Origin: Candidatus Woesearchaeota archaeon
Lineage (GTDB): Archaea > Nanobdellota > Nanobdellia > SCGC-AAA011-G17 > ARS1403
Assembly (NCBI GenBank): GCA_964372845.1
Contig: CAYJRS010000001.1
Coordinates: 28,823-66,072, forward strand
Length of the DNA: 37,250 nucleotides
Reading direction: 5' to 3'
A program made the translations under genes and the position numbers. Shown one piece after another: positions 7,799 to 22,899 of the stretch (positions within the stretch are counted from its first letter, which is position 1; every line of letters starts with the position of its first letter). Below the pieces are notes generated by a model. It did not search any database, was not told the DNA's origin, and was given only the letters and a program-made list of their open reading frames with translations.

Positions 7799-7805
7799 TT
7801 ATTTA

Positions 7806-8411
7806 TTATTTTTTTAACCTGTCTGTGATCCTTGAGAGCTCTTTTACGTTTTCTGTCAATGGCTGTAGGATTTTTTCCAGAACTTTTGAAAGCGTTTTTA
7901 CTTCTATGTTAACGTCGGCAATAGATTTCCTGTAGTCCTCAACTTTTCCTAGCATTGTGGTTTGCAAATTTTCTAAGTGGTTTCTTATGCGAAGAATTTC
8001 CTGCTTTATTGCTTCTATCTCTGTTGCGGTTTTTTCTTTCCATAAGCTAAAGTCGTTGATATTAACGCTGAGCTCGTCGATTTTTTCGCTTATTATTGAC
8101 TCTGCTATTTCCTCTATTTCCTCTATGCTCTGCCTCTCCGGGATCCTTGAAGGCGCTGGAAACTTTTGCGATGAGATAAAATCCCTTACTTCTGATTTTG
8201 GAGAATAACTCTCTTCGTCGAAAGCCTGCTCGGATTCCATCTCTTCCGAAGGGGTGGGAGGGGATAATTCATCGAGAGAACTTTCTTGATTCGATATCGC
8301 GTCGTAAATATCTTGAGCTGAATGACCCTCTTTTTTCAGCCTTTCAATTATTGAGCTGTTCGGGCTTCCTGCTTTTTTTAATTCACTTATCTTTGCTTGG
8401 AGATTTGGCAT
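7806..8411 (-). CDS. coiled-coil protein with an acidic, low-complexity middle
   Basis: Heptad-like C-terminal half (EIEAIKQEILRIRNHLENLQ...). It is the downstream partner of 8383..8739 with a 29-nt overlap. Confidence 0.5.
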   Translation of the reverse strand: MPNLQAKISELKKAGSPNSSIIERLKKEGHSAQDIYDAISNQESSLDELSPPTPSEEMESEQAFDEESYSPKSEVRDFISSQKFPAPSRIPERQSIEEIEEIAESIISEKIDELSVNINDFSLWKEKTATEIEAIKQEILRIRNHLENLQTTMLGKVEDYRKSIADVNIEVKTLSKVLEKILQPLTENVKELSRITDRLKK

Positions 8412-8739
8412 TTTCTTTTATTAATGATAAAACTTCTTTTTCTGTTGCAAAGTTTAACGGGTTCCATGTGTTAATATATCTTTCTAAAACCTTCAACTCT
8501 TGAGAGCTGGCGAAAGAGCCCATTTCCTTTATCACATCTTTTAATGTTTCTCTCAGCTTGAACAGTTCATTCTTCATTAGCCTTAATTCTGAGTTGAGGT
8601 CCTTTATCTGCTCTGACATCTTCCTGAACTCATCAATTACATTGCTGTCTGTTACTGCTAGTCTTTCTCTTAGATTTGCAATTCTTGCTTCATTTATTCT
8701 TAATCTTCCTATTAGTTCTGTTCCTATTATTTCTGGCAT
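8383..8739 (-). CDS. coiled-coil protein
   Basis: 118-aa heptad-rich ORF, divergently transcribed from the pilus ATPase across a 60-bp AT-rich spacer. Confidence 0.5.
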   Translation of the reverse strand: MPEIIGTELIGRLRINEARIANLRERLAVTDSNVIDEFRKMSEQIKDLNSELRLMKNELFKLRETLKDVIKEMGSFASSQELKVLERYINTWNPLNFATEKEVLSLIKENAKSPSKDK

Positions 8740-8799: not shown

Positions 8800-11700
8800 A
8801 TGGCGCTGTTTGTGAACAAAAAAGAAAAAGAATTCGATGTGGTCAATGAGGGAAGCGAGAGGGTTTTGAGATTAGATTATACAAAAAAAGCGATAATCCC
8901 CAGTATTGAAGACAGTGAAGAATGCATGCAGGATGTTATAAGCAAACTAGTTGAGGTTGCAGGAGTTAGCAGAATTGTGCTGGTGCAGCAGAGAAATTAT
9001 AATTACAGCTATAGCCAAGTTCAATTGCTGGTTGAGATTGCAAGATTGTATAATCATGTGATAAAGCAGAAAAAATTTTTAGTTCTGCCTGCAAATGAGC
9101 AGTATAAATATTTAGCCAGTAAGATAGGGATTGTTAGAAGCTTGATAAGGAGCTTGATAAGAGATCCTATTGGGGCCTATGTCGAGTTGAAAAGGATAAT
9201 CAGGGAAGAGAAAATTATTCTAAATAAATTAATCGACGAGCCTGACATCAAATCTTGCGAAATCTTGATTGAGATTTTAAATGAATTCTTTGAGATGCTG
9301 GATAAAATAAGGATAATAGAGATTGTGAAAAAAAGATTAGACGGGTATGAAGTAGGGAGCAGAGAGATTTACAGACAATTGTTTAGAGCTGAGATAACTC
9401 CAAATTTTATGTTTACCAGATTGATGTCGAGAGTTCCTGTTGATGGCGATGAAATAGACAGCTATAAGGTTGGGAATGCTGATGTAAATATTTTCTCTAT
9501 TCCTCAAGACATTAAATATTTATATCACTTAATGCCTCCTGAATTCAAACTTACCGAGGACAAACAAGAGCTGCTTGATATGGCGAGGAATGTTCTTATC
9601 GAGCATAAACCTAGGGCTGAGGAATTTATTGATCCTGAAAGGATGAGGATGACTTTTTTTAATATTGGAAGAGACTTAATGCAGGAGCTTGCCGACAGAC
9701 AAAATATTAAATTGAGCTTGAAAGAGCTTGAGGAATTAACTTCTATATTAGTAAGATACACAGTCGGTTTTGGATTGCTGGAAGTCTTGCTGCGGGATGA
9801 AAGAATTCAGGATATCACGATTAATGGTCCCATTGGCGTAACTCCAATTTTTATTGTGCATCAGAAATATGATGAATGCGTTACAAATATTATTCCAAGT
9901 GCCGAGGATGCTGAAAGCTGGGCGACAAAATTTAGGATCTTGAGTGGAAGACCATTGGACGAGGCTAATCCTATTTTGGATACTGAGTTGAGCGTTCCTG
10001 GTGCTAGAGCAAGGGTTGCTATCGTCGGAAGACCATTAAATCCTAAGGGTTTAGCCTATGCTTTTAGGAGACACAGAGATGAGCCTTGGACCTTGCCTTT
10101 GTTTATTGAGAATAGAATGATAAATCCGCTCGGAGCTGGGCTGATGAGCTTCATTGTCGACGGTGCAAGGACAATACTTGTAGCCGGGACGAGAAGTTCT
10201 GGAAAATGCGTTAAGGGAGATACTTTAATTCAATTAAGTGATGGAAACATTGTTCCTATAAACGAGATGATTAAAGGAAAAGAAGAAAAAGTTGACGGAA
10301 ACATTATTTATAGAGATGAAAATCCTCCTAAGATTGTTTCGCTAGAAAACTACAAATTAAAAAACAAGAAGTTAACTACTTATTGGAAGAGGAAAATCAA
10401 AGGCGAGAAATTAATTAAGATCAGAACTAAATCTGGAAGGGAGGTTGTAACGACTCAAGAACATCCTTATTTTACTTTCGATAGAGGAGTTAGATCTATA
10501 TTTGCTGCAAATTTAAAAGAAGGACAGTTTATCGCCGCACCGAGGAAAATTAATATCATCGGCAAAAATGCTAGAAAACAAAAAATTGATTTCAAAACTG
10601 CCGATCCTTTTTTTGAATACGACAACTACTATTTAATCGAAGGCATTACTAACTCTAGTCCTGTTAAGTTTCCTAAATACATGGACGAAAAATTAGCCGA
10701 ATTTCTTGGTTATTTATTAGGAGATGGGCACATCGATAAACATAAAATTGAGTTTACTAATTCTAATGAGTATTTAAGAGAAAGATTCAAGAAACTAATT
10801 TCTAATTTTGATATACCTTATAGGGAATTTAAAACGAGAAATACTTGGAATATTCAGATTACTTCTAGGTTGTTGAGCAGAGCTTTATCAAATACATTTG
10901 ATATTTATCTTGGAAAGAAGTCTAGTAAAATTAAAATCCCTAAAGAAATTTTGATGTCTGAAAGAAAGGTATTAGCTAGTTTTCTTAGAGCTTACTGGGA
11001 TTGTGACGGTTATATTCCTAAGGAAAAGAGAGACCTTGAAATTTGCACAAAGAGCGGGATGATGAGTAAGCAACTCCAAATGGTATTTTTACGATTTGGA
11101 ATCGTTTGTTTTTGCAAAAAGAAGATTATTGGCGGAGAGATATATTATCGAATCTTAATAAGGGGAGAATTTGTCAATAAATATGCTCAATTTATCGGAT
11201 TCAATCATCCCTGGAAATCAAAAAGATTAAAGGCTGTATTTGAAGAAGAATGGTTGGAGAATACCAATGTTGATATAATCCCTGATGGAGATTACTTTTT
11301 AAAAGAATTAAGACGAAAATTAAGAATTACCCCCCGACAACATTTATTTAGTACAGGCAAAGACTATTGGGCATATGAAAATAAAGAATATAGGGTGAGC
11401 AGAAAATGGTTTAAAATCTTGATTAACTCTTACTTTGAAAGATATAAACAATTAGAAAAATTTTCTTCTAAAATTCGGGAATTAAATAAGTTTGTTTCAT
11501 TTTACGAAGATTATGATGACTCCATGGGCCTTTTTGATGATTTAAGGGCCTTGTTGAATATTTCTTACTCTCAACTGTCGTCGTACACTAATTTTACAGA
11601 TTCATGGCTAAGAGGATTGCTTAAGAAAAAGAGAATCGGCAGTCTTGAAGATTTGAACCGTATGAGAGATGCTTATGGCTTTATTAAAAATAAATTTGTT

Positions 11701-13191
11701 GGTTTAAGAAAATTTAGTGACGAAGATTTTGATGCTCATGATTTGAAAGATTTGGTTGCCTATACCAATTTAACTTATTCTGAAGTATCAAAAAATACCG
11801 GAATATCGGAAACTATGCTTAAGTATTACTCTTCTGGCAATGTTATGGTGCCTTTTAGCAAACAAGAACTTATTATAGATTATTTGAAAAAATTTAAAAT
11901 AGATTTGATAGAGAGATTAGAACGAAGCGAGAAACTTTTAAATAGATTAAGAGATAAATTCCTGGAAAACCTTGTTTCATATGTTGGTATCGGAATGATT
12001 CTTGGAGAACTTAGAAATGAACTTAATATACAAAATGAAGAATTTGCTAGTAATAATTTATCTATTGGAACAGTATCTAATTTTTTTAATTTTCGGTACA
12101 AAAATTCCAGCTTAACTACTCTATTTGAGATTGCTAGAAAGGTGATTGATATTTATAATGAGGGCATTTCTGATGAAACTAAAAAACTTTTAGACGAGTC
12201 TTTAAAATTAGCCAATTCCGATATCTTTTGGGATGAAGTGGTCGATATTGAGAAAGTCGATTCTGATGATGAATTTGTTTATGATTTAACTGTTCCCTGT
12301 ACGCATAATTTTATTGCCAATGGGGTAATTGCACATAATACCTCCTTTTTGGGATCCTTGCTTGTTGAGGTGATGAGAAAGTACCGATTGATTACTGTTG
12401 AAGACACAATGGAATTAAGTGTAGATGCTCTGAGAGAGTTAGGATACAATATTCAACCACTGAAAGTTAGAAGTGCACTTGCTGGAGGTGCTACTGAAGT
12501 AAGTGCTGAAGAAGGAATAAGAACTGCTTTAAGAATGGGAGATAGTGCCCTTATCGTCGGAGAAATTCGTTCACTGGAATCAAAAGCACTTTATGAAGCG
12601 ATGAGAATCGGTGCTTTAGCAAATGTTGTTGCTGGAACTATTCATGGAGATTCTCCGTATGGTGTTTATGACAGGGTTGTTAATGATTTAGGAGTTCCAA
12701 AAACAAGTTTTAAAGCAACCGACATAATTGTGATCTGCAATCCTGTTAAGAGTGCTGATGGATTGAGCAAGTGGAGAAGGATTGTGCAGATAACTGAGGT
12801 AAGAAAAAAATGGGAGGAAGATCCCTTAGCTGAGAATGGCTTCATTGACCTAATGAAATATGATGCTAAAACTGATTCTCTACAGGCAACTGACGATTTG
12901 ATTAATGGGAATAGCGAGGTAATCAAAAATATTGCAAGCAACATTCCCGAATGGGCAGGGCATTGGGATGCTGTCTGGGATAATATAATATTAAGAGCTA
13001 AGATGAAGGAGGCTTTGGTAAATTATTCTAAGTACAACAAAAATATTTTAGAAGCGAAGTTTGTAATTGCTGCGAATGACCATTATCATAGAGTTAGCGA
13101 GGGAGTTAAAAAAGAGATAGGTTATCTTGATCCTAAAAGGATTTATTTTGAATGGGAAGAGTGGCTGAAGAGAGCTGCTAAGAAGATTTGA
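8800..13191 (+). CDS. type II/IV secretion-family ATPase (FlaI/ArlI/PilB/VirB11-like), interrupted by an intein in the Walker A loop
   Basis: Walker A is split as VAGTRSSGK | intein | TSFLGSL. Downstream motifs are ITVEDTMEL, GDSALIVGEIR and GTIHG (His box). The mature protein would be 752 aa with a long N-terminal region. Confidence 0.9.
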   Translation: MALFVNKKEKEFDVVNEGSERVLRLDYTKKAIIPSIEDSEECMQDVISKLVEVAGVSRIVLVQQRNYNYSYSQVQLLVEIARLYNHVIKQKKFLVLPANEQYKYLASKIGIVRSLIRSLIRDPIGAYVELKRIIREEKIILNKLIDEPDIKSCEILIEILNEFFEMLDKIRIIEIVKKRLDGYEVGSREIYRQLFRAEITPNFMFTRLMSRVPVDGDEIDSYKVGNADVNIFSIPQDIKYLYHLMPPEFKLTEDKQELLDMARNVLIEHKPRAEEFIDPERMRMTFFNIGRDLMQELADRQNIKLSLKELEELTSILVRYTVGFGLLEVLLRDERIQDITINGPIGVTPIFIVHQKYDECVTNIIPSAEDAESWATKFRILSGRPLDEANPILDTELSVPGARARVAIVGRPLNPKGLAYAFRRHRDEPWTLPLFIENRMINPLGAGLMSFIVDGARTILVAGTRSSGKCVKGDTLIQLSDGNIVPINEMIKGKEEKVDGNIIYRDENPPKIVSLENYKLKNKKLTTYWKRKIKGEKLIKIRTKSGREVVTTQEHPYFTFDRGVRSIFAANLKEGQFIAAPRKINIIGKNARKQKIDFKTADPFFEYDNYYLIEGITNSSPVKFPKYMDEKLAEFLGYLLGDGHIDKHKIEFTNSNEYLRERFKKLISNFDIPYREFKTRNTWNIQITSRLLSRALSNTFDIYLGKKSSKIKIPKEILMSERKVLASFLRAYWDCDGYIPKEKRDLEICTKSGMMSKQLQMVFLRFGIVCFCKKKIIGGEIYYRILIRGEFVNKYAQFIGFNHPWKSKRLKAVFEEEWLENTNVDIIPDGDYFLKELRRKLRITPRQHLFSTGKDYWAYENKEYRVSRKWFKILINSYFERYKQLEKFSSKIRELNKFVSFYEDYDDSMGLFDDLRALLNISYSQLSSYTNFTDSWLRGLLKKKRIGSLEDLNRMRDAYGFIKNKFVGLRKFSDEDFDAHDLKDLVAYTNLTYSEVSKNTGISETMLKYYSSGNVMVPFSKQELIIDYLKKFKIDLIERLERSEKLLNRLRDKFLENLVSYVGIGMILGELRNELNIQNEEFASNNLSIGTVSNFFNFRYKNSSLTTLFEIARKVIDIYNEGISDETKKLLDESLKLANSDIFWDEVVDIEKVDSDDEFVYDLTVPCTHNFIANGVIAHNTSFLGSLLVEVMRKYRLITVEDTMELSVDALRELGYNIQPLKVRSALAGGATEVSAEEGIRTALRMGDSALIVGEIRSLESKALYEAMRIGALANVVAGTIHGDSPYGVYDRVVNDLGVPKTSFKATDIIVICNPVKSADGLSKWRRIVQITEVRKKWEEDPLAENGFIDLMKYDAKTDSLQATDDLINGNSEVIKNIASNIPEWAGHWDAVWDNIILRAKMKEALVNYSKYNKNILEAKFVIAANDHYHRVSEGVKKEIGYLDPKRIYFEWEEWLKRAAKKI
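10207..12339 (+). mobile_element. 711-aa LAGLIDADG intein inserted at GK|T of the ATPase P-loop
   Basis: Starts CVKGDTLIQLSDG, has block B TQEH and ends VIAHN followed by +1 Thr. The two LAGLIDADG motifs are FLGYLLGDGHID and LRAYWDCDGYIP. Coordinates were derived codon by codon from frame 8800. Confidence 0.85.
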
Positions 13192-13224
13192 TTTATTTAT
13201 TTTAAGTAGTTTGGTTATTTTACC

Positions 13225-13242
13225 TGTATAATTTATTATACA
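13225..13242. promoter_or_regulatory. 18-bp palindrome tgtataat-tt-attataca, copy 1 (putative operator)
   Basis: Perfect 8-bp inverted arms with a 2-bp spacer. An identical copy lies 40 bp downstream. Both sit in the 96-bp spacer upstream of the wHTH-MNT gene. Confidence 0.5.
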
Positions 13243-13264
13243 TTAGTCGGAAAATTTATATAGT

Positions 13265-13282
13265 TGTATAATTTATTATACA
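13265..13282. promoter_or_regulatory. 18-bp palindrome tgtataat-tt-attataca, copy 2 (putative operator)
   Basis: Exact repeat of 13225..13242. It lies between a TATA-like tttatata (13255..13262) and the ATG at 13288. Confidence 0.5.
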
Positions 13283-13287
13283 ATCGT

Positions 13288-13833
13288 ATGAATAATTATA
13301 CTAAGATTTTGGAAAAGATTTTTGAGAGGCCAGAGTATCATTTTCATATAAGGGAGTTGGCTAAGGAGACAAATTTGCATCCCAATACAGTTATCTCTAT
13401 TACTAACAAGCTTGAAAAAGAGGGGATTGTTAAGAAAAACAAGAGGAAAGTCGTTGTTGAAGTTTATTGCGATGTTGAATCTCAAATATATAAAAGGAAG
13501 AAACAAGTATTCAATCTTAATTCTCTCTATTCCAGCGGGCTGATAGACTTCCTGATAGATTTTTTTAATATGCCAAGAGCTATTGTTTTGATTGGTAGTT
13601 TTTTGAGGGGAGAAGATTTTTCTAAGAGCGATATTGATATTGCTGTAATTTTAAATAAAAAAGAAAAGCAAGATCTGCCAGATTTGAGAAAATATGAGAA
13701 GCTATTAAAGAGAAATATTCACTTGCTTGTTTTTGATCAGAAGAACCTTGCATTAGATATTAGCCGAGAGTTTTTGAATAACTTAATTAATGGCTTTATT
13801 TTATACGGGTATTTAGAATATGATAGATTTTGA
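13288..13833 (+). CDS. winged-HTH plus minimal nucleotidyltransferase (MNT) protein
   Basis: The N-terminal wHTH is HIRELAKETNLHPNTVISITNKLEKEGIVKK. The NTase motif is GSFLRGEDFSKSDIDIAVI. The ATG at 13288 is preferred to the track's TTG at 13264, which lies inside palindrome 2. Confidence 0.75.
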   Translation: MNNYTKILEKIFERPEYHFHIRELAKETNLHPNTVISITNKLEKEGIVKKNKRKVVVEVYCDVESQIYKRKKQVFNLNSLYSSGLIDFLIDFFNMPRAIVLIGSFLRGEDFSKSDIDIAVILNKKEKQDLPDLRKYEKLLKRNIHLLVFDQKNLALDISREFLNNLINGFILYGYLEYDRF

Positions 13834-14248
13834 GTACTATTTAGATAAAGGAGATGTGAAAAAAGCTAAGAAAGATATAGCCTTAGCCAAATCGCTTATG
13901 AATAATCTTTCAGAAAGAGAAAAAATGGTTTTAAAATATGATTTAAAAGATGCCTTGGTTATTTATGAAAACTTGTATGATTGTTTGCGAGAGATGTGTG
14001 ATGCCCTCTTAATTTTGGATGGATACAAATCTTATTCTCATCAGGCTTCTATAACTTATCTTAGGAAATATGGGTTCGATGAACTTTTTGTTAAGAAATT
14101 AGATAATCTTAGGTTTAAACGGAACTCATCAAAATACTACGGAAAAGGATTAACAGAAGATGATGCGAAAGAGATAAAAGAATTTTATTTAAAGTATAAA
14201 GGAAGACTGCTGAATATTTTAAAACAAAAAATGAAAGAGGCCTTATGA
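13820..14248 (+). CDS. HEPN-domain protein, partner of the MNT
   Basis: Helical 142-aa protein overlapping the MNT gene by 14 nt. The HEPN-like motif region is LRFKRNSSKYYG, with Tyr where Rx4-6H would have His. Confidence 0.65.
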   Translation: MIDFEYYLDKGDVKKAKKDIALAKSLMNNLSEREKMVLKYDLKDALVIYENLYDCLREMCDALLILDGYKSYSHQASITYLRKYGFDELFVKKLDNLRFKRNSSKYYGKGLTEDDAKEIKEFYLKYKGRLLNILKQKMKEAL

Positions 14249-16356
14249 GGAAAGATGTAGAAGACATTCTGGAGAAATATAAAAGAAAATTAGAAGAGAA
14301 ATTTGACGAGGGATTTTCTGGAGAATATAAAAAATTTAAAGAGGAGCAGATTGGAAAAGAATTAAGCTTTTATGAAAAAGCATGTAACTTTTGCAAGAAT
14401 ATTTTAGCTATTAAATCTAATGAGAAAAATAATGAGAAATTGTGGGAGAGTATACAAACTACGGGTTTAAAAATAACGCCTGAAGGGGTGATGAGTCTTG
14501 CTTTCTTTTCTGCTTTCGGGTTCATTTTAATCGGAGTCGCTATTTTTGTTTTGGGGTTGGTGATGGATAGTGTTCTTTTATTTTTTCCAATATTCTTTGT
14601 TGCCCTCGGAATTTTGTTTTTGAAGATCCTTTCTAATTATCCTAATCAAAAAGCGCTGAAGTGGAGAATTCAAGCTGAGAATCAAATGGTGCTGTGCATA
14701 TTATATGTTGTGATGTATATGAGGCACACTAGTAATCTAGAGCATGCCGTGAAGTTTGCAGCTCAGCACATTCAAGATCCTCTTTCTGGTGACTTGAAAA
14801 AAGTCTTTTGGAACATTGAGACTGGAAGATATAATACTGTGCAGGAATCTTTGGATGCTTACCTTGAGAATTGGAGAGGATACAATCTGGATTTTGTAAA
14901 TTCTTTTCACTTGATCGAGAGCAGCTTGTTTGAGCCGAAAGAGGAGAGAAGACTGGAAATTCTTGAAAGGGCTTTGACAAATATGCTCGATGGGACTTAT
15001 GAGAAGATGTTGCATTATGCACAAGAATTAAAATCTCCGATTACAACGCTGTACATGCTCGGAATAATTCTGCCTGTTTTGGGCTTGATAATGCTGCCGC
15101 TGATGGGGGGATTTTTGGGGATTAAATGGTATTGGATTGCATTCTTTTATAATTTGCTCCTTCCTGTGTTTGTGTACTTTGCTGGAAATAAACTGCTGAT
15201 CAAAAGACCTGCTGGCGAGGGAGAGAGCTTTTCTCTGCAAGAAGATTTATTTGAAAACTATAAATATTTGAAAATCGGAAATGCATTTGTTAATCCTGCT
15301 GTTCTGGCTCTGCCTTTATTTCTCATAATTTTAATCATTGGTTTCTCTCCCTTGTGGATGCATGCTTTGTTTCCTAATGATCTTTATTTGAATGGTGATT
15401 GGATTTTTGGATACAGAGACGACAGCGGACCTTTTGGTTTTGCTGCTCTAGTTTTGAGTCTTGCGATACCCCTCAGCTTTGCTATCGGGTTGGGGACTTA
15501 TTACAAATTAAAGAGCAGGAAACTTGTGAAGATTAGGGAAGATACGAGAGAATTGGAGAGAGAATTTGCTGGAAGCTTGTTTCAGCTTGGAAATAGAATA
15601 GAAGATGGTGTGCCGGTTGAGCTTGCTTTTTCTAAAGTTGCGGAGAATATGCAGGGAACGATGTCTGGAAAATTTTTTAGTATGGTGAGCAATAATTTAA
15701 GAAACTTGGGAATGGGTTTGAAAGAATCTATTTTTAATATTAAAAGAGGAGCAATCTTAAGTTTTCCTTCTAAGGTAATACAAAGCAGCATGGAAGTTCT
15801 GGTTGAAAGCGCGAGAAGGGGTCCTAAGATTGTTTCGCATGCGCTTATGAGCGTTAGTAATTATATGACGGCAATACACAAAGTGAATGAAAGGCTGAAA
15901 GATTTGCTTGCTGATGTCTTGAGCAGCATGAAGAGCCAGATTAATTTTATAACGCCTTTGATTGCTGGAATCGTCGTCGGCATTGGAAGTTTGATAACGA
16001 ATATTGTTGCTAATTTAGGTCCCTTACTTGGAGATGCTGGAAGTAGCGGAGGCGGTGTTGAAGGCTTTGGAGTCGATGCAGATCTCTTAACCGGGATTTT
16101 TCCTATTAAAGATTTAATCCCGCCATTTTATTTTCAGCTCATTGTCGGCTTATATTTGGTTCAGATAACTTATATACTAACTGTATTAGCTAATGGCGTT
16201 GAGAATGGGGTAGATAAACTTAATGAGGAGAATATGCTTGGTAAAAATTTATATAAAAGCATGCTGTTTTATATTCTTGTTACGCTGATAACGACTATAA
16301 TATTGACAGTGATGGCGAGAGGAGTGATCAATGTCGGGAGCGGAGGTGCAATTTGA
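14245..16356 (+). CDS. polytopic platform protein with two T2SSF-like (FlaJ/TadC/PilC) cytoplasmic domains
   Basis: Two helical soluble segments are each followed by TM clusters. The first is NQMVLCILYVVMYMRHTSNLEHAVKFAAQHIQDPLSGDLKKVFWNIETGRYNTVQESL. The second is FAGSLFQLGNRIEDGVPVELAFSKVAENMQGTMSGKFF. The start overlaps the HEPN stop (ATGA). Confidence 0.7.
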   Translation: MRKDVEDILEKYKRKLEEKFDEGFSGEYKKFKEEQIGKELSFYEKACNFCKNILAIKSNEKNNEKLWESIQTTGLKITPEGVMSLAFFSAFGFILIGVAIFVLGLVMDSVLLFFPIFFVALGILFLKILSNYPNQKALKWRIQAENQMVLCILYVVMYMRHTSNLEHAVKFAAQHIQDPLSGDLKKVFWNIETGRYNTVQESLDAYLENWRGYNLDFVNSFHLIESSLFEPKEERRLEILERALTNMLDGTYEKMLHYAQELKSPITTLYMLGIILPVLGLIMLPLMGGFLGIKWYWIAFFYNLLLPVFVYFAGNKLLIKRPAGEGESFSLQEDLFENYKYLKIGNAFVNPAVLALPLFLIILIIGFSPLWMHALFPNDLYLNGDWIFGYRDDSGPFGFAALVLSLAIPLSFAIGLGTYYKLKSRKLVKIREDTRELEREFAGSLFQLGNRIEDGVPVELAFSKVAENMQGTMSGKFFSMVSNNLRNLGMGLKESIFNIKRGAILSFPSKVIQSSMEVLVESARRGPKIVSHALMSVSNYMTAIHKVNERLKDLLADVLSSMKSQINFITPLIAGIVVGIGSLITNIVANLGPLLGDAGSSGGGVEGFGVDADLLTGIFPIKDLIPPFYFQLIVGLYLVQITYILTVLANGVENGVDKLNEENMLGKNLYKSMLFYILVTLITTIILTVMARGVINVGSGGAI

Positions 16357-16358
16357 AT

Positions 16359-16466
16359 ATGAATAAGAAAGGGATGATGGACAAGATTATTGTAATTGTT
16401 CTGATTTTGGTATTGGCAATATTATTATTTTTAATACTTGCAAAGGTGATGAAATTTGTTTTTTAA
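16359..16466 (+). CDS. 35-aa pilin-like micro-protein
   Basis: Not in the track. Manual translation gives MNKKGMMDKIIVIVLILVLAILLFLILAKVMKFVF*. It starts 2 nt after the platform gene stop and has the same MNKKG plus hydrophobic-helix N-terminus as the larger pilin-like genes. Confidence 0.45.
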   Translation: MNKKGMMDKIIVIVLILVLAILLFLILAKVMKFVF

Positions 16467-17115
16467 TAGAAGAGGAATTGCTATGGAAAATTTAGTTACT
16501 ATCGTCCTTATTGTTGCCGGGGCGATCATTATAATTCTTGCTATGACTGGACTTTTTAAGCAGGTAGTTTTCTGGAATGTTCTCTGTAAAAGCACTGTTT
16601 ACTTGTCAGACCAAGTTTTGGGCTTTGTTGATCCTATATGCAAAACACAGTATAAAGAATTTAAAGATAAAGAGGATCTTGCTGAAAGCATGGCGACTGC
16701 ATGGAATGTTTTTGGCGAGGGAAATTTAAATCCTAGTGGCACAAATTGGTTTAAGTGGAACGAGTTGAGATGCTTCAAATATTATAGAGGTGATGTTAAG
16801 GAAGAACTGATAGGGGTTACTGGAGGAGAATTTCAGAGATATTTAGTTGATACTAAGGGGAAAAATGCAAAGAAAAGTTACTGGAATTATTTTAATAAAG
16901 GCGAGGTTGATTTTAAAAGAGTGATTGTAGGCTTTGATAAGCTGGAGGAGGGAGACCTTATTGCTATACTTTATTTTGAAGAGGTTGAAAGCGCTGCATT
17001 GAATCCATCTTCATGGGTATATAATCTTCTTGAAGCTTTGCTCGGAGACATCGAGGATAGAATCGTTGTTGTTAAGGATAATCCCGGAGTGCAAGTTAAT
17101 TGCGTCGAAATATGA
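16456..17115 (+). CDS. pilin-like secreted protein (4 Cys)
   Basis: A TTG start gives MFFNRRGIAMENLVTIVLIVAGAIIIIL, an RRG plus hydrophobic helix. An alternative ATG lies at 16483. Confidence 0.5.
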   Translation: MFFNRRGIAMENLVTIVLIVAGAIIIILAMTGLFKQVVFWNVLCKSTVYLSDQVLGFVDPICKTQYKEFKDKEDLAESMATAWNVFGEGNLNPSGTNWFKWNELRCFKYYRGDVKEELIGVTGGEFQRYLVDTKGKNAKKSYWNYFNKGEVDFKRVIVGFDKLEEGDLIAILYFEEVESAALNPSSWVYNLLEALLGDIEDRIVVVKDNPGVQVNCVEI

Positions 17116-17126
17116 TGAGGCATGAT

Positions 17127-17273
17127 ATGAAAAAGGGAATGTTTGCTTTGGGCGAGACTACTAAATTGATTTTGATTTTGATAGCGCTGGTGCTCTTGAT
17201 TTTTTTTATTTACTTTTTGAGAGATAAGATAACAGATTATGTTGAATTCATTTCAGATTTTTTGAATCCGTAA
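17127..17273 (+). CDS. 48-aa pilin-like micro-protein
   Basis: Not in the track. Manual translation gives MKKGMFALGETTKLILILIALVLLIFFIYFLRDKITDYVEFISDFLNP*. The next gene starts 1 nt after its stop. Confidence 0.45.
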   Translation: MKKGMFALGETTKLILILIALVLLIFFIYFLRDKITDYVEFISDFLNP

Positions 17274-17274
17274 A

Positions 17275-17922
17275 ATGGCAGATGAAGAAGAAAGCAGTGG
17301 AATTGGAACGGTTATAGGCGTGGTTGTACTGCTAATAGCTCTTGTTACTCTCGGTTGGCTTTTTGCTTCTAAGTCTGGGGAGGTGACTAAACTTGCTGAT
17401 AAATTCTTTCCAGATTCCGAGGAGCTGGGGGAAATAAAGAAAATACAGGAAGATGTATTTGAGGGAGAAGAAATCATGATGAAAAAAGAAGAGGAGGCTG
17501 CGGAGGCGATTTTAGCTGTTTTTGAAAGACTTTCTAGAAGTAAAGATGATGAATGCATAATGGATTTTACATTCGATAAGATTGAAGACAAGGATTTTAA
17601 AATAAAAGTTGACGGGAAGAGAGTTGAAGTCTTGAAGAAAGATGGTTTGAGGGTGTATAGAAATGAGGAGCCCTATAAGAAAAAATTTTTTTTTATGAAA
17701 AGCAGAGTGATTAAAACAGAAAAAGGAAATATCTTAGAAAGAGGGGTTAAGGCAGAGGAATTATTTTTTATTACTGATGAACTTAGTAAGATTAATAATG
17801 AGTTTGTCTTAGGAAAATGGATATATGTAGAGAAGGATTCTGTTTATTTTTTAGATAGTGATACTTCTTTTGAATACTCCGGACTGCCTGGGTTTGAAAA
17901 AAGAAAATGCAAAATTAATTAG
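17275..17922 (+). CDS. N-terminally anchored hypothetical protein of the pilus operon
   Basis: MADEEESSGIGTVIGVVVLLIALVTLGW is a single N-terminal TM segment, followed by an acidic region. No family recognised. Confidence 0.5.
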   Translation: MADEEESSGIGTVIGVVVLLIALVTLGWLFASKSGEVTKLADKFFPDSEELGEIKKIQEDVFEGEEIMMKKEEEAAEAILAVFERLSRSKDDECIMDFTFDKIEDKDFKIKVDGKRVEVLKKDGLRVYRNEEPYKKKFFFMKSRVIKTEKGNILERGVKAEELFFITDELSKINNEFVLGKWIYVEKDSVYFLDSDTSFEYSGLPGFEKRKCKIN

Positions 17923-17984
17923 AAAAGTTTAAATAAGAAAGCTTATATATGAGTAATAACTTTGTTAAAAAAAGGTGAAACTGA

Positions 17985-18356
17985 ATGGATAAGAGAGGTC
18001 AAGAAGGGCTTTCTATGAATACTATTATAATTGCGATTATTGGCATCATAGTTCTGCTTTTGATTGTTACTTTCTTTACAGGAGGCATGTCAACTATATT
18101 TAATAAAATAAGAGGGGTGTTTGGAGGCGGTACTGCTGGATACGACGTCGATCTGGCTAAAGCACAGTGCCAGTCTTATTGTGAGAGAGCAAAATTAAAC
18201 CAAGAGACTTCACAGCCGACGTCTACATATTGCACGCAGGTGTTTGATATCCTGAAAACCGATGGAAGCGGAGATACTGAACCGCAAAAATGCGGTGCTA
18301 TAACGAGTAAAATATTCACTTCGTGTAGAATAAACAATGTTCAGATTACTTGTTAA
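17985..18356 (+). CDS. pilin-like protein (6 Cys)
   Basis: N-terminus MDKRGQEGLSMNTIIIAIIGIIVLLLIV. SD-like aggtga and TATA-like elements lie upstream. Confidence 0.6.
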   Translation: MDKRGQEGLSMNTIIIAIIGIIVLLLIVTFFTGGMSTIFNKIRGVFGGGTAGYDVDLAKAQCQSYCERAKLNQETSQPTSTYCTQVFDILKTDGSGDTEPQKCGAITSKIFTSCRINNVQITC

Positions 18357-18370
18357 TTTTTTCTTTTCCT

Positions 18371-18562
18371 ATGAATAAAAAAGGTTTAACTTGGAGCACA
18401 ATTGTTTATGCAATAATTGCGATAATAGTTTTGATAGTCATTGTCTGGATTTTTCGAGAGCAGATAAATGAGATTTACAAAAGCTTAACTGTGATCATCA
18501 AAGGGACTAGCAGCGGCGCTGAAGATGCTGGCAGGGAAATTAAAGACTTAATTAAAAGCTAA
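18371..18562 (+). CDS. 63-aa pilin-like protein
   Basis: N-terminus MNKKGLTWSTIVYAIIAIIVLIVIVWI. The ATG at 18371 is preferred to the track start at 18350. Confidence 0.55.
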   Translation: MNKKGLTWSTIVYAIIAIIVLIVIVWIFREQINEIYKSLTVIIKGTSSGAEDAGREIKDLIKS

Positions 18563-18595
18563 AGTTTATATATTTTTTAAACTAAATTGCCTGAC

Positions 18596-19387
18596 ATGAA
18601 TAAGAAAGGAGTTTTTACATTGGAGTTTACAATAAGTCTGGTTTTAACTGTTCTCGTACTTATTATTCTTGGTGGTTTTCTGCTTAAAGCGTATTCTTCT
18701 CAGCAATGTCCTGTTGGTTATAATATAATTAATGATTTTTCTGATCCTACAATCTATGAATTATGCGGCAGTGCTGAAAAGTTACAGGAGAATAAACAAA
18801 GATGCTGCCAAAGGAAAAGCGATCTCAATGAAGTTTGCTTGTGGGATATGGAGGATAAAGAATATTTAAGGTGTGATAAGATATCTTTGTTTAATTTTAA
18901 TAATGTTTGCTTGGATAATACTAAATGCGGGGTTTCTAGTAGAGAATGTTCTGGAGCTTATTGCGAGAAAGGGGTTTGCCTTGTGGAAAATGGAATTGGG
19001 AGATGTGTTGAGAAATTCAATATCGGAGAAAAAAGAATCAATATTGAGAGCAATGCCCTTTGTATTGAAGGTGTGAGGGATAATATTCTTGGAAGCAAAT
19101 GCGAGGGCGAAAAAGGATTGCATTGCATCTTCGACATTAAAAATAGTAGAGCTTTATGCAGAGGAGGTGGATTCTTGGCTATTAGCGAGCAAGATGCTTT
19201 TAATGAGTGTGGAGGACTATGCGAGGAAGCGAAAGAGAGATTTACTCCTAGTGAGATGTTTAAATCTGAATTTTGCAGAAGAGGTGCAATACCAGTAAGT
19301 TCTGGCGGCAAAGATAAGCCTATTATGAAGAAATGTTCTGAGATTTATCCTGACTGCAAATGTGGAGTATCCTCTCCAGAAGAATAG
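18596..19387 (+). CDS. cysteine-rich pilin-like protein (22 Cys)
   Basis: N-terminus MNKKGVFTLEFTISLVLTVLVLIILGG, with Glu at +5 after the Gly. The ectodomain has 22 cysteines. The ATG at 18596 is preferred to the TTG at 18587. Confidence 0.6.
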   Translation: MNKKGVFTLEFTISLVLTVLVLIILGGFLLKAYSSQQCPVGYNIINDFSDPTIYELCGSAEKLQENKQRCCQRKSDLNEVCLWDMEDKEYLRCDKISLFNFNNVCLDNTKCGVSSRECSGAYCEKGVCLVENGIGRCVEKFNIGEKRINIESNALCIEGVRDNILGSKCEGEKGLHCIFDIKNSRALCRGGGFLAISEQDAFNECGGLCEEAKERFTPSEMFKSEFCRRGAIPVSSGGKDKPIMKKCSEIYPDCKCGVSSPEE

Positions 19388-19426
19388 ACAAAAACAAATA
19401 TAAATTAAAGAAATTTAGGATAATAT

Positions 19427-19807
19427 ATGAATAAAAGAGGCGAAGGGTTAGTACAGATTCAGACTGTTGAGTTTGCTTTCCTAATTGTTCTTGTTATATT
19501 TTTTTCTGTAAGGCTTTACCAACCTATTGAAGAAAACAAATTGAATCAGATTAAAGCTGAAGATTTGGCTTTAAGTATTGAAAGTTTGCCGATACTTAAT
19601 GGAGACTTGAGATTGGACTACAAGTTTGGAGATGAATACTATATTGAAGAAATCAACAATGTTATTTTCATTTATAAATTATCTGAAGTAAAAAAAGGCA
19701 GAAGCAAGGTGGGTTTAGAAAATAGTTATGATTTTGCTGAAAACATTAATGATAAGACAGAGGCTATTGTGATTGAAAAAAAAGGGAAGAAGGTGGTGAT
19801 TTACTGA
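19427..19807 (+). CDS. pilin-like protein
   Basis: N-terminus MNKRGEGLVQIQTVEFAFLIVLVIFF. It is the first of four translationally coupled genes. Confidence 0.6.
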   Translation: MNKRGEGLVQIQTVEFAFLIVLVIFFSVRLYQPIEENKLNQIKAEDLALSIESLPILNGDLRLDYKFGDEYYIEEINNVIFIYKLSEVKKGRSKVGLENSYDFAENINDKTEAIVIEKKGKKVVIY

Positions 19808-20208
19808 TGGGGGGCATTCTTGGCAGCAAGTTGGGATTTTATATCTTCTACATTTTACTTTTTACTATAGGGATTGTTCAAGTTGCCAGATTAATTAATA
19901 TTGAAGGCGAATATATTTTTAAAATTGCCGACGCTGAAGACAGGGTAGTTGTGTATAGGATAATAAAATGTGCTTCTGAAAATAATAGGTTTGGAATCAT
20001 AGATGAGTCTAAATTCGATGAAGAGATATTGAAAAATTGTTTGGGAGGGAAGTATAGTTTTTCAACAAGCTTAAAGAAATCAGAGGGATTGAATAAAAGA
20101 GTTGAGGCGGGTAGTTTGGAAAAAGATGTTAGGGATATTGCTAGGTACGTGATTGTTAACGGTAAGGGAGCAAAGCTTGAGGTGAGGTATAGTAAAAATG
20201 TTGCCTGA
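19807..20208 (+). CDS. N-terminally anchored hypothetical protein
   Basis: N-terminus MGGILGSKLGFYIFYILLFTIGIV. There is a 1-nt TGATG overlap with the previous gene. Confidence 0.5.
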   Translation: MGGILGSKLGFYIFYILLFTIGIVQVARLINIEGEYIFKIADAEDRVVVYRIIKCASENNRFGIIDESKFDEEILKNCLGGKYSFSTSLKKSEGLNKRVEAGSLEKDVRDIARYVIVNGKGAKLEVRYSKNVA

Positions 20209-20695
20209 AGATATTCAAGATCTGATAATTGCTACAGCTTTGTTGTTGATACTTCTAATAATTGGAAAATTTATTTATAATATATATGGAGCCGATTTTT
20301 CAGCAAATAGGTATATCTCTAAAGATGTCGACTTCAATGATGAAGAGAAATTTTTCTTGTTGAATTTCCTTAGAGCAGAAGCTGGAACTGGGGGGATTTC
20401 TGAATTAATATCTAAGAGCGAAGGTGAAACTAACTTGATTTCTTTACAGGAGATTAGCGAGAGTTACCTAGGATCTTATTTTGGCGGAAGAAATTATATC
20501 ATGAAGGTCCAGTATTCTGATGGGAAAGTTAGATTCATTACTGCTTCACATGCATGGGGTTTACCTAAGGGTGAGAGAGGGATTCCGACGGAGAAGCAGA
20601 AAAAATTTTGGTTTGAATTAGGCGACGGAGAAAAATTCAGAATACCTTCTTTAAAACAAGGATTAATTACAATTGAATTGAAGGTGGAAAAATGA
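20198..20695 (+). CDS. N-terminally anchored hypothetical protein
   Basis: N-terminus MLPEDIQDLIIATALLLILLIIGKF. It overlaps the upstream gene by 11 nt. Confidence 0.5.
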   Translation: MLPEDIQDLIIATALLLILLIIGKFIYNIYGADFSANRYISKDVDFNDEEKFFLLNFLRAEAGTGGISELISKSEGETNLISLQEISESYLGSYFGGRNYIMKVQYSDGKVRFITASHAWGLPKGERGIPTEKQKKFWFELGDGEKFRIPSLKQGLITIELKVEK

Positions 20696-21429
20696 ATAAC
20701 AGAGGGGCTTTATTTGCAACTTTAACTATGATAATTATGATAATCTTTGTTATTAGTATTAATGCTAGAAAGACACAAATATTAGAAGAAACTAAAATTG
20801 TTGAGACTGGAAAAATTCCTGATATTGCTATATACTTTTCTATAGAAGAAGAGACGATGAAGTTTTTTATTGAAAAATCTATGGAATATGCTTCTTTTAA
20901 TGCTCTGAAGAAAATGGGAGAGGAAGGCGGAATCTTAAAAGAGCAGAAATGCGAGAAAGTAAATGAATATGTAATATGGAAAGATGATTGCTATTTTTCT
21001 GATAACCTCGAGGAGAATTTTTTTAGTAGATTTGAAGAATTTTTTAACAATTATTTAAAAGAATATGGAGCAAGTAAAGTAAATACTGATTGGGAAATAG
21101 ATGAGAATAATAAATTCGTTATAGAAGCGGATGGTATAATTGAGCTGGAATACAAAGGAGTGAAATATGGATTCGAGCCCGATATTAAATCTGTTTTGGA
21201 TTACGACTTTAGTTATTATACTGAGATTTTAAGAAAAGCTAAAGAATGCTTGAGAGACGAGGAGTTAAAGGGGATTACAAGAAACAACTTATTTGAGAAA
21301 TGCAGAAATGACAAGGATTTTAAATGGGGGGTAAAAGTCGAAGATAAGTTTGTATTATTTAGTGTTTCTAAACCTTACAAAAATTTAGGGGATGTTTCTG
21401 TGAAATTTGCTATTCCACACAATCAATAA
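20692..21429 (+). CDS. pilin-like protein (4 Cys)
   Basis: N-terminus MNNRGALFATLTMIIMIIFVISI. There is an ATGA overlap with the upstream gene. Confidence 0.55.
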   Translation: MNNRGALFATLTMIIMIIFVISINARKTQILEETKIVETGKIPDIAIYFSIEEETMKFFIEKSMEYASFNALKKMGEEGGILKEQKCEKVNEYVIWKDDCYFSDNLEENFFSRFEEFFNNYLKEYGASKVNTDWEIDENNKFVIEADGIIELEYKGVKYGFEPDIKSVLDYDFSYYTEILRKAKECLRDEELKGITRNNLFEKCRNDKDFKWGVKVEDKFVLFSVSKPYKNLGDVSVKFAIPHNQ

Positions 21430-21460: not shown

Positions 21461-22444
21461 ATGATTGTTCCTCTAAACTATGATGCGATTGTTTCTAAAT
21501 TAAAAGAGAAAGGTATAGGTCTGTTTGAGATCGAGGAAAAGATAAAAAATAAAATGGAGCAGCTTTCTGGATTGATAAGCAAGGAGGGTGCTGCGCATAT
21601 AATTGCAAATGAACTGGGGATAAAGGTTTTTGAAGACGTTGGTGAGATAAAGATTAAAGAAGCTAAAGGTGGAATGAGAAATGTAAACTTAAATGGGAAA
21701 GTGACTGTTAACTTCGGCGTTAGAGACTTTAAAAATGATAAAAGGGCTGGAAGGGTTGGGAGCTTTGTGATCGGAGATGAGACTGGAGGTATAAGGGTTG
21801 TTCTGTGGGATGATAAGCATATAAATAATATGGGTAAAATGCAGGATGGTGACATAGTCAGAGTTGAAAACGGATACATTCGGGAAAATAATGGATATAG
21901 AGAGATTCATCTTAATAATAATTCTGCGTTTAAATTAAATCCGGAGAATGTGGATATTAAAGACGTTAAGGTAAATGGGCTTGGTGAATTTAAAAGTAAG
22001 GAGATTAAGGAGCTGCAGCAGAACGATAGAGTAAGCATTAGGGGGACAATAGTGCAGATATTCGAGCCTAGGTTTTATGAAATCTGTGGAGAGTGCGGAA
22101 GGAGAGTCAGAATAGAGAATGGAAGCTTTAAATGTGAGCAGCATGAAAAAATGAATTTAGGATATGCATGCGTTGTCAATTGTGTTTTGGATGATGGGAG
22201 TGAGAGCATAAGGGTAGCCTGCTTTAGAGAGAATGCATGTAAATTAATCGGAATTAGCGAGGAAGAATTATTAAATGTTAAAGATAAACCTGATAAATTT
22301 GAAGCCTTGAAAGATTCTACCTTGGGAAAGCAGATTAAAGCTGAGGGAAGAGTAAATAAAAATGCTATGTTTGACAGGCTGGAGTTTGTAGCTAATTATG
22401 TTGAAGAACTAAATCCTGAAGAATTATTGAAAGAGATGGAATGA
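21461..22444 (+). CDS. rpa: replication protein A (ssDNA-binding, OB folds plus zinc finger)
   Basis: The N-terminus ...LISKEGAAHIIANELGIKV is typical of archaeal RPA. OB-fold-like repeats are present. The zinc finger is CGECGRRV...CEQH. Confidence 0.8.
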   Translation: MIVPLNYDAIVSKLKEKGIGLFEIEEKIKNKMEQLSGLISKEGAAHIIANELGIKVFEDVGEIKIKEAKGGMRNVNLNGKVTVNFGVRDFKNDKRAGRVGSFVIGDETGGIRVVLWDDKHINNMGKMQDGDIVRVENGYIRENNGYREIHLNNNSAFKLNPENVDIKDVKVNGLGEFKSKEIKELQQNDRVSIRGTIVQIFEPRFYEICGECGRRVRIENGSFKCEQHEKMNLGYACVVNCVLDDGSESIRVACFRENACKLIGISEEELLNVKDKPDKFEALKDSTLGKQIKAEGRVNKNAMFDRLEFVANYVEELNPEELLKEME

Positions 22445-22899
22445 TTTTTAGAACGCATATTGCTTTTAGTTTATTGATTGGATTGTTTTCCTATTTTTAT
22501 GGCCTTGTTGATAATTGGATTTTATTTTTTTTATTTTTGTTTCTTGGCGCCGGGTTTCCTGATATCGATCATAAAAAAAGTAAATTCGGAAGAAATTTCT
22601 TTTCTAGAATTCTTGGATTTTTTTCTAAACACAGGAAAATATTTCACAGTTTATTTTTTGGAGCTGCTCTAGCATATTTATTTTTTCTTTATGATAAGGA
22701 TGCTGGGCTCGGATTCTTTCTTGGATTCTTGAGCCATATTCTTTTAGATTCTTTTACCGAGGAAGGAATTAATTTTCTATATCCTTTTCGGAAATTTGTT
22801 TTTAAGGGAATTATTAAAACCGGAGGGAGGCTAGAAGCTGTTTTGTTTTATCTTCTTGCGATAATTGATGTCTTTCTATTTTTAATTGTGCCGACGTAA
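22441..22899 (+). CDS. membrane-bound metal-dependent hydrolase (DUF457/YdjM-like)
   Basis: Motifs seen are THIAFSLL, GAGFPDIDH, HRKIFHS and SHILLDSFT. There is an ATGA overlap with rpa. Confidence 0.65.
   Translation: MIFRTHIAFSLLIGLFSYFYGLVDNWILFFLFLFLGAGFPDIDHKKSKFGRNFFSRILGFFSKHRKIFHSLFFGAALAYLFFLYDKDAGLGFFLGFLSHILLDSFTEEGINFLYPFRKFVFKGIIKTGGRLEAVLFYLLAIIDVFLFLIVPT

Follow-up and report, generated by a model that had tools for sequence, protein, structure and literature searches.

A predicted type IV filament locus in a Woesearchaeota genome

A 37,250-nucleotide stretch of the genome of a Candidatus Woesearchaeota archaeon (assembly GCA_964372845.1, contig CAYJRS010000001.1, positions 28,823 to 66,072; hereafter the window) very probably encodes a type IV filament (TFF) machine, a type-IV-pilus-like apparatus of this DPANN archaeon. 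Four core parts of such machines are found in the window, namely a secretion/assembly ATPase, a polytopic platform protein, a set of substrates with class III-type leaders, and a prepilin peptidase of family A24 (Table 1). Most of the substrates are encoded in an eleven-gene cassette that begins immediately after the platform gene. The locus is the standard surface-filament machine of its lineage and is among the best-conserved gene clusters of that lineage. It is a further example of type-IV-pilus-like gene clusters already reported in DPANN archaea, rather than a system of a new kind. In a collection with one genome per species, the platform gene is found in at least 595 genomes. The window has a G+C content of about 34%, and its archaeal gene content includes RadA with two inteins, RPA, a Hef/XPF-type nuclease, and the archaeal A24 peptidase.

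An earlier reading, made from the letters of the window and the translations of its open reading frames (the sequence-only reading), had placed the locus at positions 8800 to 21429 and regarded it as unusually expanded. The genes are as it listed them, and conserved parts of the locus also lie at 6094..8739 and, in the case of the peptidase, at 29858..30727. The idea of an unusual expansion had to be given up after a synteny check, which shows the standard architecture of the whole lineage. The comparison set comprised 80 related loci (labelled L001 etc.), which were fetched via the platform protein.

The motor ATPase and its intein

Pfam places a T2SSE fragment at the end of the unspliced ATPase reading frame and, in its middle, an intein splicing domain accompanied by a pair of LAGLIDADG_3 domains. 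The intein is inserted directly after the Walker A lysine (GTRSSGK↓C...HN↓TS, where arrows denote splice or cleavage sites here and below), and 469 amino acids (aa) precede the splice site. In silico excision restores an intact GTRSSGKTS loop in an ATPase of 752 aa. These figures agree with the sequence-only reading, which had given a mature length of 752 aa with about 470 aa before Walker A. All the marks of a class 1 intein are present, including C470, block B (TQEH), the AHN↓T end, and the two LAGLIDADG_3 domains.

The spliced ATPase scores 55.8 bits against Pfam T2SSE (3.9e-15; cut-off 24.9). Its NCBIfam matches are FlaI (1e-38), TadA (7e-37), and VirB11 (7.5e-18), and its matches in the Protein Data Bank (PDB) are archaeal GspE (2oap, 2.7e-28), CpaF (9e-25), FlaI (7e-18), and VirB11 (~6e-7). 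Because the GspE, CpaF, FlaI, and TadA scores far exceed those of VirB11 in both NCBIfam and the PDB, the ATPase is assigned by sequence to the group of pilus, archaellum, and Tad secretion ATPases and not to the conjugative VirB11 group. The clade of the ATPase had been singled out in advance as a check on the filament interpretation, and the protein groups with archaeal GspE, CpaF, and FlaI, with VirB11 much weaker. Its orthologues are 55–67% identical and occur in 71–76 of the 80 loci. The alignment with FlaI begins at ATPase residue 297, which corresponds to FlaI residue 99, and the ~200 additional N-terminal residues are kept among the orthologues (55% identity). The length of the ATPase had been called unusual; it is not exceptional, because archaeal TFF ATPases commonly bear subsystem-specific N-terminal domains (10.64898/2026.04.22.720090).

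The Walker A intein site is also filled in L069, L067, and L032, and most orthologues are intein-free with an uninterrupted GK↓TS. Among the ATPase orthologues, inteins occupy three sites: one follows the Walker A GK, one precedes the Thr of VED↓T(L/M)EL, and one lies between GEIR and TEA. At least one ATPase intein is present in 11 of 71 loci (L069, L067, L032, L070, L057, L031, L033, L005, L061, L027, and L019), some of which have two. Inteins thus target the pilus ATPase recurrently in this Woesearchaeota lineage. Elsewhere in the window, the RadA gene (23513..27478) is interrupted by a further two inteins, whose domains are of the LAGLIDADG or homing-endonuclease type, so that with the ATPase intein there are three inteins in 37 kb.

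The platform protein

More than 3597 homologues of the platform protein were found, all from Woesearchaeota or Nanoarchaeota, and none has a recorded Pfam domain; two of them were named ‘Flp pilus assembly protein TadB’ by IMG. The HMMER profile of the family recovers only 1334 of 1.84e9 cluster representatives and does not reach canonical T2SSF, and the family is therefore regarded as sequence-isolated from canonical T2SSF proteins.

The AlphaFold2 (AF2) model of the platform (predicted local distance difference test, pLDDT, 78.6) contains two cytoplasmic helical bundles, and after each of them come long helices and transmembrane (TM) segments. Foldseek returned 219 matches to this model, of which only two were of high probability. 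One is the PilC chain in the type IVa pilus machine model 3jc8 (probability 0.82), and the other is cytoplasmic domain I of OutF/GspF (5nbg; probability 0.98, target-normalised TM-score 0.76, root-mean-square deviation 2.9 Å, 115 columns). Pfam T2SSF is weakly matched by three of 27 Woesearchaeal members of the platform family (best E 0.0015).

A further connection runs through haloarchaea. A plasmid search with the ATPase core led to a haloarchaeal T2SSE ATPase on the Haloterrigena plasmid pHTUR04, where the downstream gene is annotated as “secretion system protein”. The product of this gene matches the Woesearchaeal platform family at 99.8% in hhalign, and a 32-sequence haloarchaeal profile does so at 99.92% (E 3e-35, 572 columns). 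Pfam T2SSF is matched by 14 of the 32 members of the haloarchaeal family (best 2e-5), and several members were named T2SS F family protein (T2SS, type II secretion system) or TadC by their sources. From the folds of the model, the weak family matches, and the haloarchaeal homology, we read the platform as a remote member of the T2SSF/TadC superfamily.

Leader peptides and their conservation

Leaders were searched for with a motif that comprised a start codon, [KR][GA] within 14 residues, and then a 16-residue window with a mean Kyte-Doolittle value of at least 2.2. The eight leaders that the sequence-only reading had described are all present, each preceding a strongly hydrophobic stretch that is predicted to form a helix. 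These eight leader-bearing open reading frames (ORFs) in a cassette of ~5 kb compare with a mean of 0.015 and a maximum of one in 200 shuffles of 16353..21429, and their enrichment in the cassette relative to the rest of the window has a Fisher p of 5e-6. Chance was rejected as an explanation on these figures; the eight-leader pattern is real and far beyond chance. Outside the cassette, the motif recurs three times on the plus strand, at 32758 and, within other ORFs, at 6397 and 6733; its two minus-strand matches are spurious.

The pattern extends to the related loci. In the 45 loci with at least 4 kb of downstream sequence, scanned for 6 kb after the platform gene, the median number of leader-bearing ORFs is six, with up to 11, compared with a median of zero on the opposite strand. 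The 308 ORFs collected from related loci include leaders of the types MNKKG (44), MKKG (27), MNKKA (26), and MNKRG (11). At positions that the motif does not impose, Lys is found at −2 in 86%, Asn at −3 in 47%, and Met at −4 in 46% of them. A typical leader-bearing ORF has one acidic residue between the Gly and the hydrophobic core, which starts 6–8 residues on. The [KR]G context to which the sequence-only reading had drawn attention is thus conserved in the 308 ORFs after platform homologues, and a peptidase of the A24 family is present in the window. Of the three outcomes that the sequence-only reading had named as fatal to its claim, which concerned the ATPase clade, the N-termini, and the T2SSF homology of the platform, none was observed.

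The order and sizes of the eleven cassette genes are conserved across the related loci as far as the RPA gene. In L043, a complete AR20 genome, the products are 35, 292, 50, 201, 136, 66, 190, 129, 158, 169, and 240 aa long and all bear leaders; the corresponding lengths in the window are 35, 219, 48, 215, 123, 63, 263, 126, 133, 165, and 245 aa. Genes 4, 9, and 10 (17275, 19807, and 20198) had been described as having an N-terminal anchor only, which is true of the window and not of their positional orthologues elsewhere, which bear leaders. The N-terminus of gene 4 is MADEEESSGIG in the window, and that of its L001 orthologue is MNKKGEEESSGIG; positional orthologues of gene 9 bear MNKKA or MNKKG (L043, L060, and L010), and those of gene 10 bear MKKG or KKG. 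Because these orthologues carry the leader, genes 4, 9, and 10 are interpreted as cassette members that have lost it in this sub-lineage.

The peptidase that would process the leaders is encoded 8.4 kb downstream of the cassette. It matches Pfam Peptidase_A24 with 37.2 bits (cut-off 26.5) and FlaK in NCBIfam (9e-10), and its archaeal C-terminal domain, Arc_PepC, scores 22.7 bits (1.2e-4), just under the cut-off of 23.4. The product of the ninth leader-bearing gene (32758..33912), which lies outside the locus, has no family match in Pfam or NCBIfam and is, judging from its N-terminus, a probable additional substrate of the peptidase.

Products of the cassette

The cassette genes overlap or lie no more than 62 nucleotides (nt) apart. 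The earlier description of a near-continuous run of genes on one strand is accurate for this tightly packed cassette, and it does not extend to the region between the ATPase and platform genes, where two unrelated genes are found. Positional orthologues of gene 1, of 33–47 aa, directly follow the platform gene in many loci, and those of gene 2 start with MPFNKKG, MYSKKG, or MLDKKA. The predicted mature product of gene 1, with ~30 residues, is to our knowledge shorter than known pilins. The sole family signal on the cassette proteins consists of weak matches to Flp1_like, a type of ~60 aa. Gene 6 matches this Pfam model at 1.2e-4, under the cut-off, and three of 68 cassette N-termini of related loci also match it (best 6e-7). 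Apart from these weak Flp1_like matches, no Pfam or NCBIfam family was found for the ectodomains, in agreement with the sequence-only reading, which had recognised none.

Gene 5 is the best-conserved cassette member and the only one detectable in 32 of the 80 loci. Its conserved features are G↓Q at the predicted cleavage site, FFxGG, six cysteines, and a DxDxDG-like motif. The AF2 model (pLDDT 75) has an N-terminal helix of 34 residues (11–44) and a small alpha/beta head. Gene 5 is a candidate for the major or core pilin. In its flanks (17923..18370), a TATA-like box lies ~40 nt upstream, the ribosome-binding site reads GGTGA, and a run of T immediately follows the stop codon; as judged from sequence, gene 5 may form a separate, strongly expressed transcription unit within the cassette. 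A scan for sigma-70 promoters and intrinsic terminators showed no enrichment, the consensus used not being meaningful for an archaeon.

The cassette proteins differ widely in their rates of divergence. In global alignments with L001, the large proteins (genes 2, 4, 7, and 8) are 19–42% identical (38% for gene 7), and the small ones 63–67% (65% for gene 3), compared with 84–92% for the ATPase and platform and 74% for RPA. Gene 2 has a global identity of 27% to its closest relative. Best high-scoring segment pairs between genes 9 and 10 and L001 are 47–49% identical. The low identity of the large cassette proteins suggests diversifying selection or cassette replacement.

Proposed assembly and alternative explanations

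In the assembly pathway that we propose, the intein would splice out and restore the Walker A loop, the prepilins would insert into the membrane, and the peptidase would remove a leader of 4–7 residues after Gly or Ala. A hexameric ATPase docked on the platform would extract the mature subunits, which would polymerise via their N-terminal helices. The filament body would most likely consist of the three Flp-like products (~30, 44, and 58 aa when mature), of the Cys-rich 118-aa subunit from gene 5, or of both. The larger fast-evolving subunits would likely be priming, tip, or adhesin components, and the last four genes are also candidates for tip or priming subunits. A host-attached way of life is assumed for DPANN archaea. 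By analogy, this lifestyle and the existence of adhesive and episymbiont pili elsewhere make attachment to a host cell or surface the most probable role of the filament.

Several observations weigh against a filament machine. Leader cleavage, splicing, expression, and the filament itself are all predicted from the genes. Uncleaved N-in signal anchors likewise have a short basic N-terminus ahead of a TM helix, and genes 4, 9, and 10 have no leader in the window. No Pfam or NCBIfam model of a pilin, archaellin, or class III signal is matched by the cassette proteins, and the gene 5 model has no fold match in the PDB (Foldseek, E up to 10). Even at E = 10, neither Pfam nor NCBIfam yields a match for the 703-aa platform, and its family profile found nothing relevant among PDB sequences. 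When the N- and C-terminal halves of the platform were compared with hhalign, only a non-significant 7-residue motif was aligned (HLIESSL and KVIQSSM). The hhalign comparison of the platform with a profile of E. coli GspF and HofC, a thin target of two sequences, was likewise not significant and stayed so after haloarchaeal sequences had been added; with so thin a target, it counts as weak negative evidence. The two T2SSF-like domains attributed to the platform by the sequence-only reading are consistent with the remote homology and the folds, and have neither a direct Pfam or NCBIfam match nor a detectable repeat behind them; on the model, the phrase is a fair structural description and not a demonstrated sequence repeat.

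The signal-anchor argument can be taken further, such that the small genes would encode ordinary uncleaved anchored surface proteins lying by chance beside an ATPase/platform pair of some other function. The failure of pilin models to match, the anchor-only genes 4, 9, and 10, and the homologous pHTUR04 pair, which has no pilin cassette downstream, would all fit this arrangement. However, M-N-K-K-G/A is stereotyped across eleven non-homologous genes in hundreds of genomes, and the small residue at the predicted −1 position is invariant, which a plain signal anchor would not need. The cassette is also strictly linked to the platform gene, often with overlapping stop and start codons, and an A24 peptidase is present, so that we consider uncleaved anchors very unlikely. 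An archaellum or a conjugative type IV secretion system (T4SS) could be suspected since FlaI is the top NCBIfam match of the ATPase and the VirB11 and TrbB models match weakly. The FlaI score is however 133 bits against an equivalog cut-off of 550, and the window proteins include no match to a FlaB-type archaellin, FlaH, FlaF/G, FlaC/D/E, FlaX, or FlaJ. No VirB4, VirD4, or relaxase was found in the window either, and the PDB matches to VirB11 are ~20 orders of magnitude weaker than those to GspE and CpaF. Both systems were rejected on the ATPase scores and on the partner genes that were looked for and not found, and we regard them as extremely improbable.

A third and chief alternative retains the core machine and changes its product, which would be a short pseudopilus or uptake piston, similar to those of T2SS and Com systems, that imports DNA or other macromolecules which the reduced genome is unable to produce. 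This possibility had also been raised by the sequence-only reading. Eleven pilin-like genes exceed the needs of most adhesive pili and call to mind the sets of pseudopilins in those systems; in addition, among the 35 related loci with enough downstream flank, RPA follows the cassette in 24 and RadA is nearby in 12. However, neither a ComEC-like channel nor DprA nor a nuclease was found, RPA and RadA have housekeeping roles, gene order in these genomes is broadly conserved and extends to TraB-like and helicase neighbours, and the adhesive Epd pilus of Methanococcus maripaludis is likewise encoded by an 11-gene cluster (10.64898/2026.04.22.720090). An uptake function is accordingly rated as improbable, and a surface filament, most probably for attachment, as the better account of the locus.

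Comparison with known systems

According to Hamm et al. (2024; PMC11291902), two CpaF/TadC loci with coiled-coil proteins are conserved across cluster-2 DPANN; Woesearchaeota, Pacearchaeota, Nanoarchaeota, and Nanohaloarchaeota are among the groups named. Likened by description, these loci and the window share a CpaF-type ATPase, a TadC-type platform, and adjacent coiled-coil genes. The coiled-coil pair of the window, divergent from the ATPase gene and upstream of it in 46 of the 47 related loci with enough upstream flank, fits that description, and the 201-aa member, again likened by description, may be the counterpart of the coiled-coil proteins reported there. The main text of the same study names FlaF and PilA in one locus, and mentions no 11-gene MNKKG cassette, 5-TM paralogs, or intein. 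Beyond its DPANN-wide statement, we found no pilus work specific to Woesearchaeota in the literature.

The haloarchaeal pair of Haloterrigena turkmenica pHTUR04 (WP_012945992/WP_012945991) has a platform homologous to that of the window and an ATPase core that is 43% identical over 286 aa; a 158-aa fragment of the ATPase core is 52% identical over 134 aa in tblastn. It differs in the Cys-rich N-terminal domain of its ATPase, which the window ATPase lacks, and in having no adjacent pilin cassette. The genes flanking the pair (L083, 11420–25812) encode an AAA ATPase, a DEAD/DEAH helicase, ParA, and a DUF87 protein. Haloarchaeal ATPases of subclade 4F are also found in nanoarchaea, with a coiled-coil partner (arCOG07564) and often a Cys-rich N-terminus, and the pilins of the nanoarchaeal 4F systems could not be identified (Makarova et al., 2016; PMC4858521). 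The haloarchaeal pair, which may itself belong to this subclade, and the coiled-coil neighbours make a relationship between the window locus and subclade 4F plausible on sequence grounds, and the N-terminus of the window ATPase, which is not Cys-rich, weighs against it.

The Epd pilus of M. maripaludis (TFF system 1, clade 1) resembles the window locus in its 11-gene cluster with several minor pilins. The Epd major pilin has no globular domain (Flp-like) and in this resembles the helix-only products of the window. Gln is found at +1 in some Epd pilins, and gene 5 of the window likewise has G↓Q. The two systems differ in that Epd has two platform genes (EpdJ and EpdK) and a dedicated 9-TM EppA peptidase, whereas the window has one platform gene, as do all 80 related loci, and a FlaK/PibD-like A24 peptidase. 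The Epd pilus serves adhesion (10.64898/2026.04.22.720090).

Bacterial Tad/Flp pili share with the window the similarity of their CpaF/TadA ATPase and very small, helix-only pilins. Unlike these systems, the window has no secretin, TadZ, or TadD, and it has one fused platform in place of TadB and TadC. The leader is also much shorter than that of Flp and lacks the Flp motif G↓xxxxEY. The likeness to Saccharibacteria, which are ultra-small episymbionts of the candidate phyla radiation (CPR) that use type IV pili for host association according to the account in PMC11291902, is one of functional analogy; their system is a bacterial type IVa pilus with PilB, PilT, and PilC, and its evolutionary origin differs from that of the window locus.

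Upstream partners, insertions and neighbouring genes

Three paralogous 5-TM membrane proteins and two coiled-coil proteins are encoded upstream of the ATPase gene, and these five genes are present in 44–46 of the 47 related loci. None of their products matches a Pfam or PDB family. The copies of the 5-TM genes in L039 have moved yet still adjoin the locus, which argues for functional linkage. A ComEC-like identity of the 5-TM paralogs was considered and rejected, as a weak ‘Competence’ match was seen in one of 26 members and no PDB relative was found. The two coiled-coil proteins are weakly paralogous to each other (E 3e-4). The 201-aa protein has weak matches of the coiled-coil type only, and a BLASTP comparison of the coiled-coil proteins with the neighbours of the pHTUR04 pair returned nothing.

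In 55 of 76 loci, the ATPase gene directly neighbours the platform gene, with at most 82 nt between them. Their junction is an insertion hot spot, with inserts of 0.2–8 kb in ~20 of the 76 loci. The nucleotidyltransferase and its partner at this position in the window have homologues in three and two of the 80 loci, respectively, and the pair (13264..14248) is interpreted as an insertion and not as part of the machine. The 142-aa partner matches no family or HEPN model and has no clear RxxxxH; it is presumed to be a HEPN-type toxin.

Downstream of the cassette, the window has RPA at 21461..22444. In the same 35 loci as above, a YdjM-family membrane hydrolase follows the cassette in 14 (window region 21461..22899). 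The adjacency of RPA and YdjM probably reflects conserved gene order rather than a functional link. A tRNA-Glu(CTC) was called at 28409..28500 on the minus strand; its 92 nt are above the standard tRNA length and may indicate an intron.

The ninth leader-bearing gene opens a second surface-protein cluster (32758..37191), which continues past the end of the window. It also encodes a 448-aa protein, in which an N-terminal C2H2-like zinc finger is combined with a single TM helix, and a pair of ~310-aa proteins whose signals resemble lipoboxes (GQSC and GQAC). The sequences flanking the 80 related loci yielded no homologues of the cluster proteins.

Table 1. Features of the predicted filament locus and of associated genes in the window (arrows, predicted cleavage sites)
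Feature	Coordinates	Strand	Details
5-TM membrane protein, paralog 1	6094..6651	+	motif FDVxLPFLLVF; homologues in 45/47 loci
5-TM membrane protein, paralog 2	6696..7268	+	
5-TM membrane protein, paralog 3	7271..7798	+	
Cytoplasmic coiled-coil protein	7806..8411	-	201 aa; divergent from ATPase gene; in 46/47 loci
Coiled-coil protein	8383..8739	-	118 aa; directly upstream of and divergent from ATPase gene
Secretion/assembly ATPase precursor, FlaI/TadA/CpaF/archaeal GspE clade	8800..13191	+	1463 aa; 752 aa spliced
Intein with LAGLIDADG homing endonuclease	10207..12339	+	711 aa; aa 470-1180 of precursor; Pfam Intein_splicing 4.9e-28, LAGLIDADG_3 1.9e-19
Winged helix-turn-helix and MntA-like nucleotidyltransferase, insertion	13264..13833	+	Pfam NTP_transf_2, Polbeta; NCBIfam MntA 9.5e-8
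Nucleotidyltransferase partner, insertion	13820..14248	+	142 aa; overlaps both neighbours
Polytopic platform protein, read as a sequence-isolated branch of T2SSF/TadC superfamily	14245..16356	+	703 aa
Pilin-like gene 1	16359..16466	+	ATG start; 35 aa; leader MNKKG; predicted mature ~30 aa, helix alone
Pilin-like gene 2	16456..17115	+	TTG start; 219 aa; leader MFFNRRG
Pilin-like gene 3	17127..17273	+	48 aa; leader MKKG; Flp-like size
Cassette gene 4	17275..17922	+	215 aa; N-terminal anchor, no leader
Pilin-like gene 5	17985..18356	+	123 aa; leader MDKRG↓Q; Cys-rich
Pilin-like gene 6	18371..18562	+	63 aa; leader MNKKG; Flp-like
Pilin-like gene 7	18596..19387	+	263 aa; leader MNKKG↓VFTLEF; Cys-rich ectodomain
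Pilin-like gene 8	19427..19807	+	126 aa; leader MNKRG
Cassette gene 9	19807..20208	+	133 aa; anchor without leader
Cassette gene 10	20198..20695	+	165 aa; anchor without leader
Pilin-like gene 11	20692..21429	+	245 aa; leader MNNRG; end of cassette, RPA next
Class III signal (prepilin) peptidase, family A24	29858..30727	-	D23, G82-G-G-D85
Ninth leader-bearing gene, outside the locus	32758..33912	+	384 aa; MNKRG↓VEG

Implications for Woesearchaeota and other DPANN archaea

We know of no cultured representative of the Woesearchaeota, and for this uncultivated lineage the practical yield of the analysis is a concrete parts list, a leader signature, and a set of variable surface subunits. The signature, M-N-K-[KR]-[GA], is a simple means of finding candidate substrates of the peptidase. 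The fast-evolving ectodomains are natural candidates for determinants of host specificity.

In a groundwater study, type IV pilus components were described as “missing in DPANN genomes”, and pili served as the criterion that separated CPR bacteria from DPANN cells in cryogenic transmission electron microscopy (10.1101/2020.05.14.094862). A likely reason why such surveys miss DPANN pili is that neither the platform nor the pilin-like proteins are recognised by Pfam and NCBIfam.

A tentative and rather unlikely extension is that the 11-gene cassette represents an unclassified archaeal type IV filament subtype that serves Woesearchaeota as a host-contact organelle. If true, it would explain the surveys in which type IV pili are called missing in DPANN archaea, and ultra-short, helix-only pilins would make up the filament, with hypervariable ectodomain caps that set the specificity for a host or surface. 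The locus leaves unchanged the picture of archaeal surface filaments as derivatives of type IV filaments.

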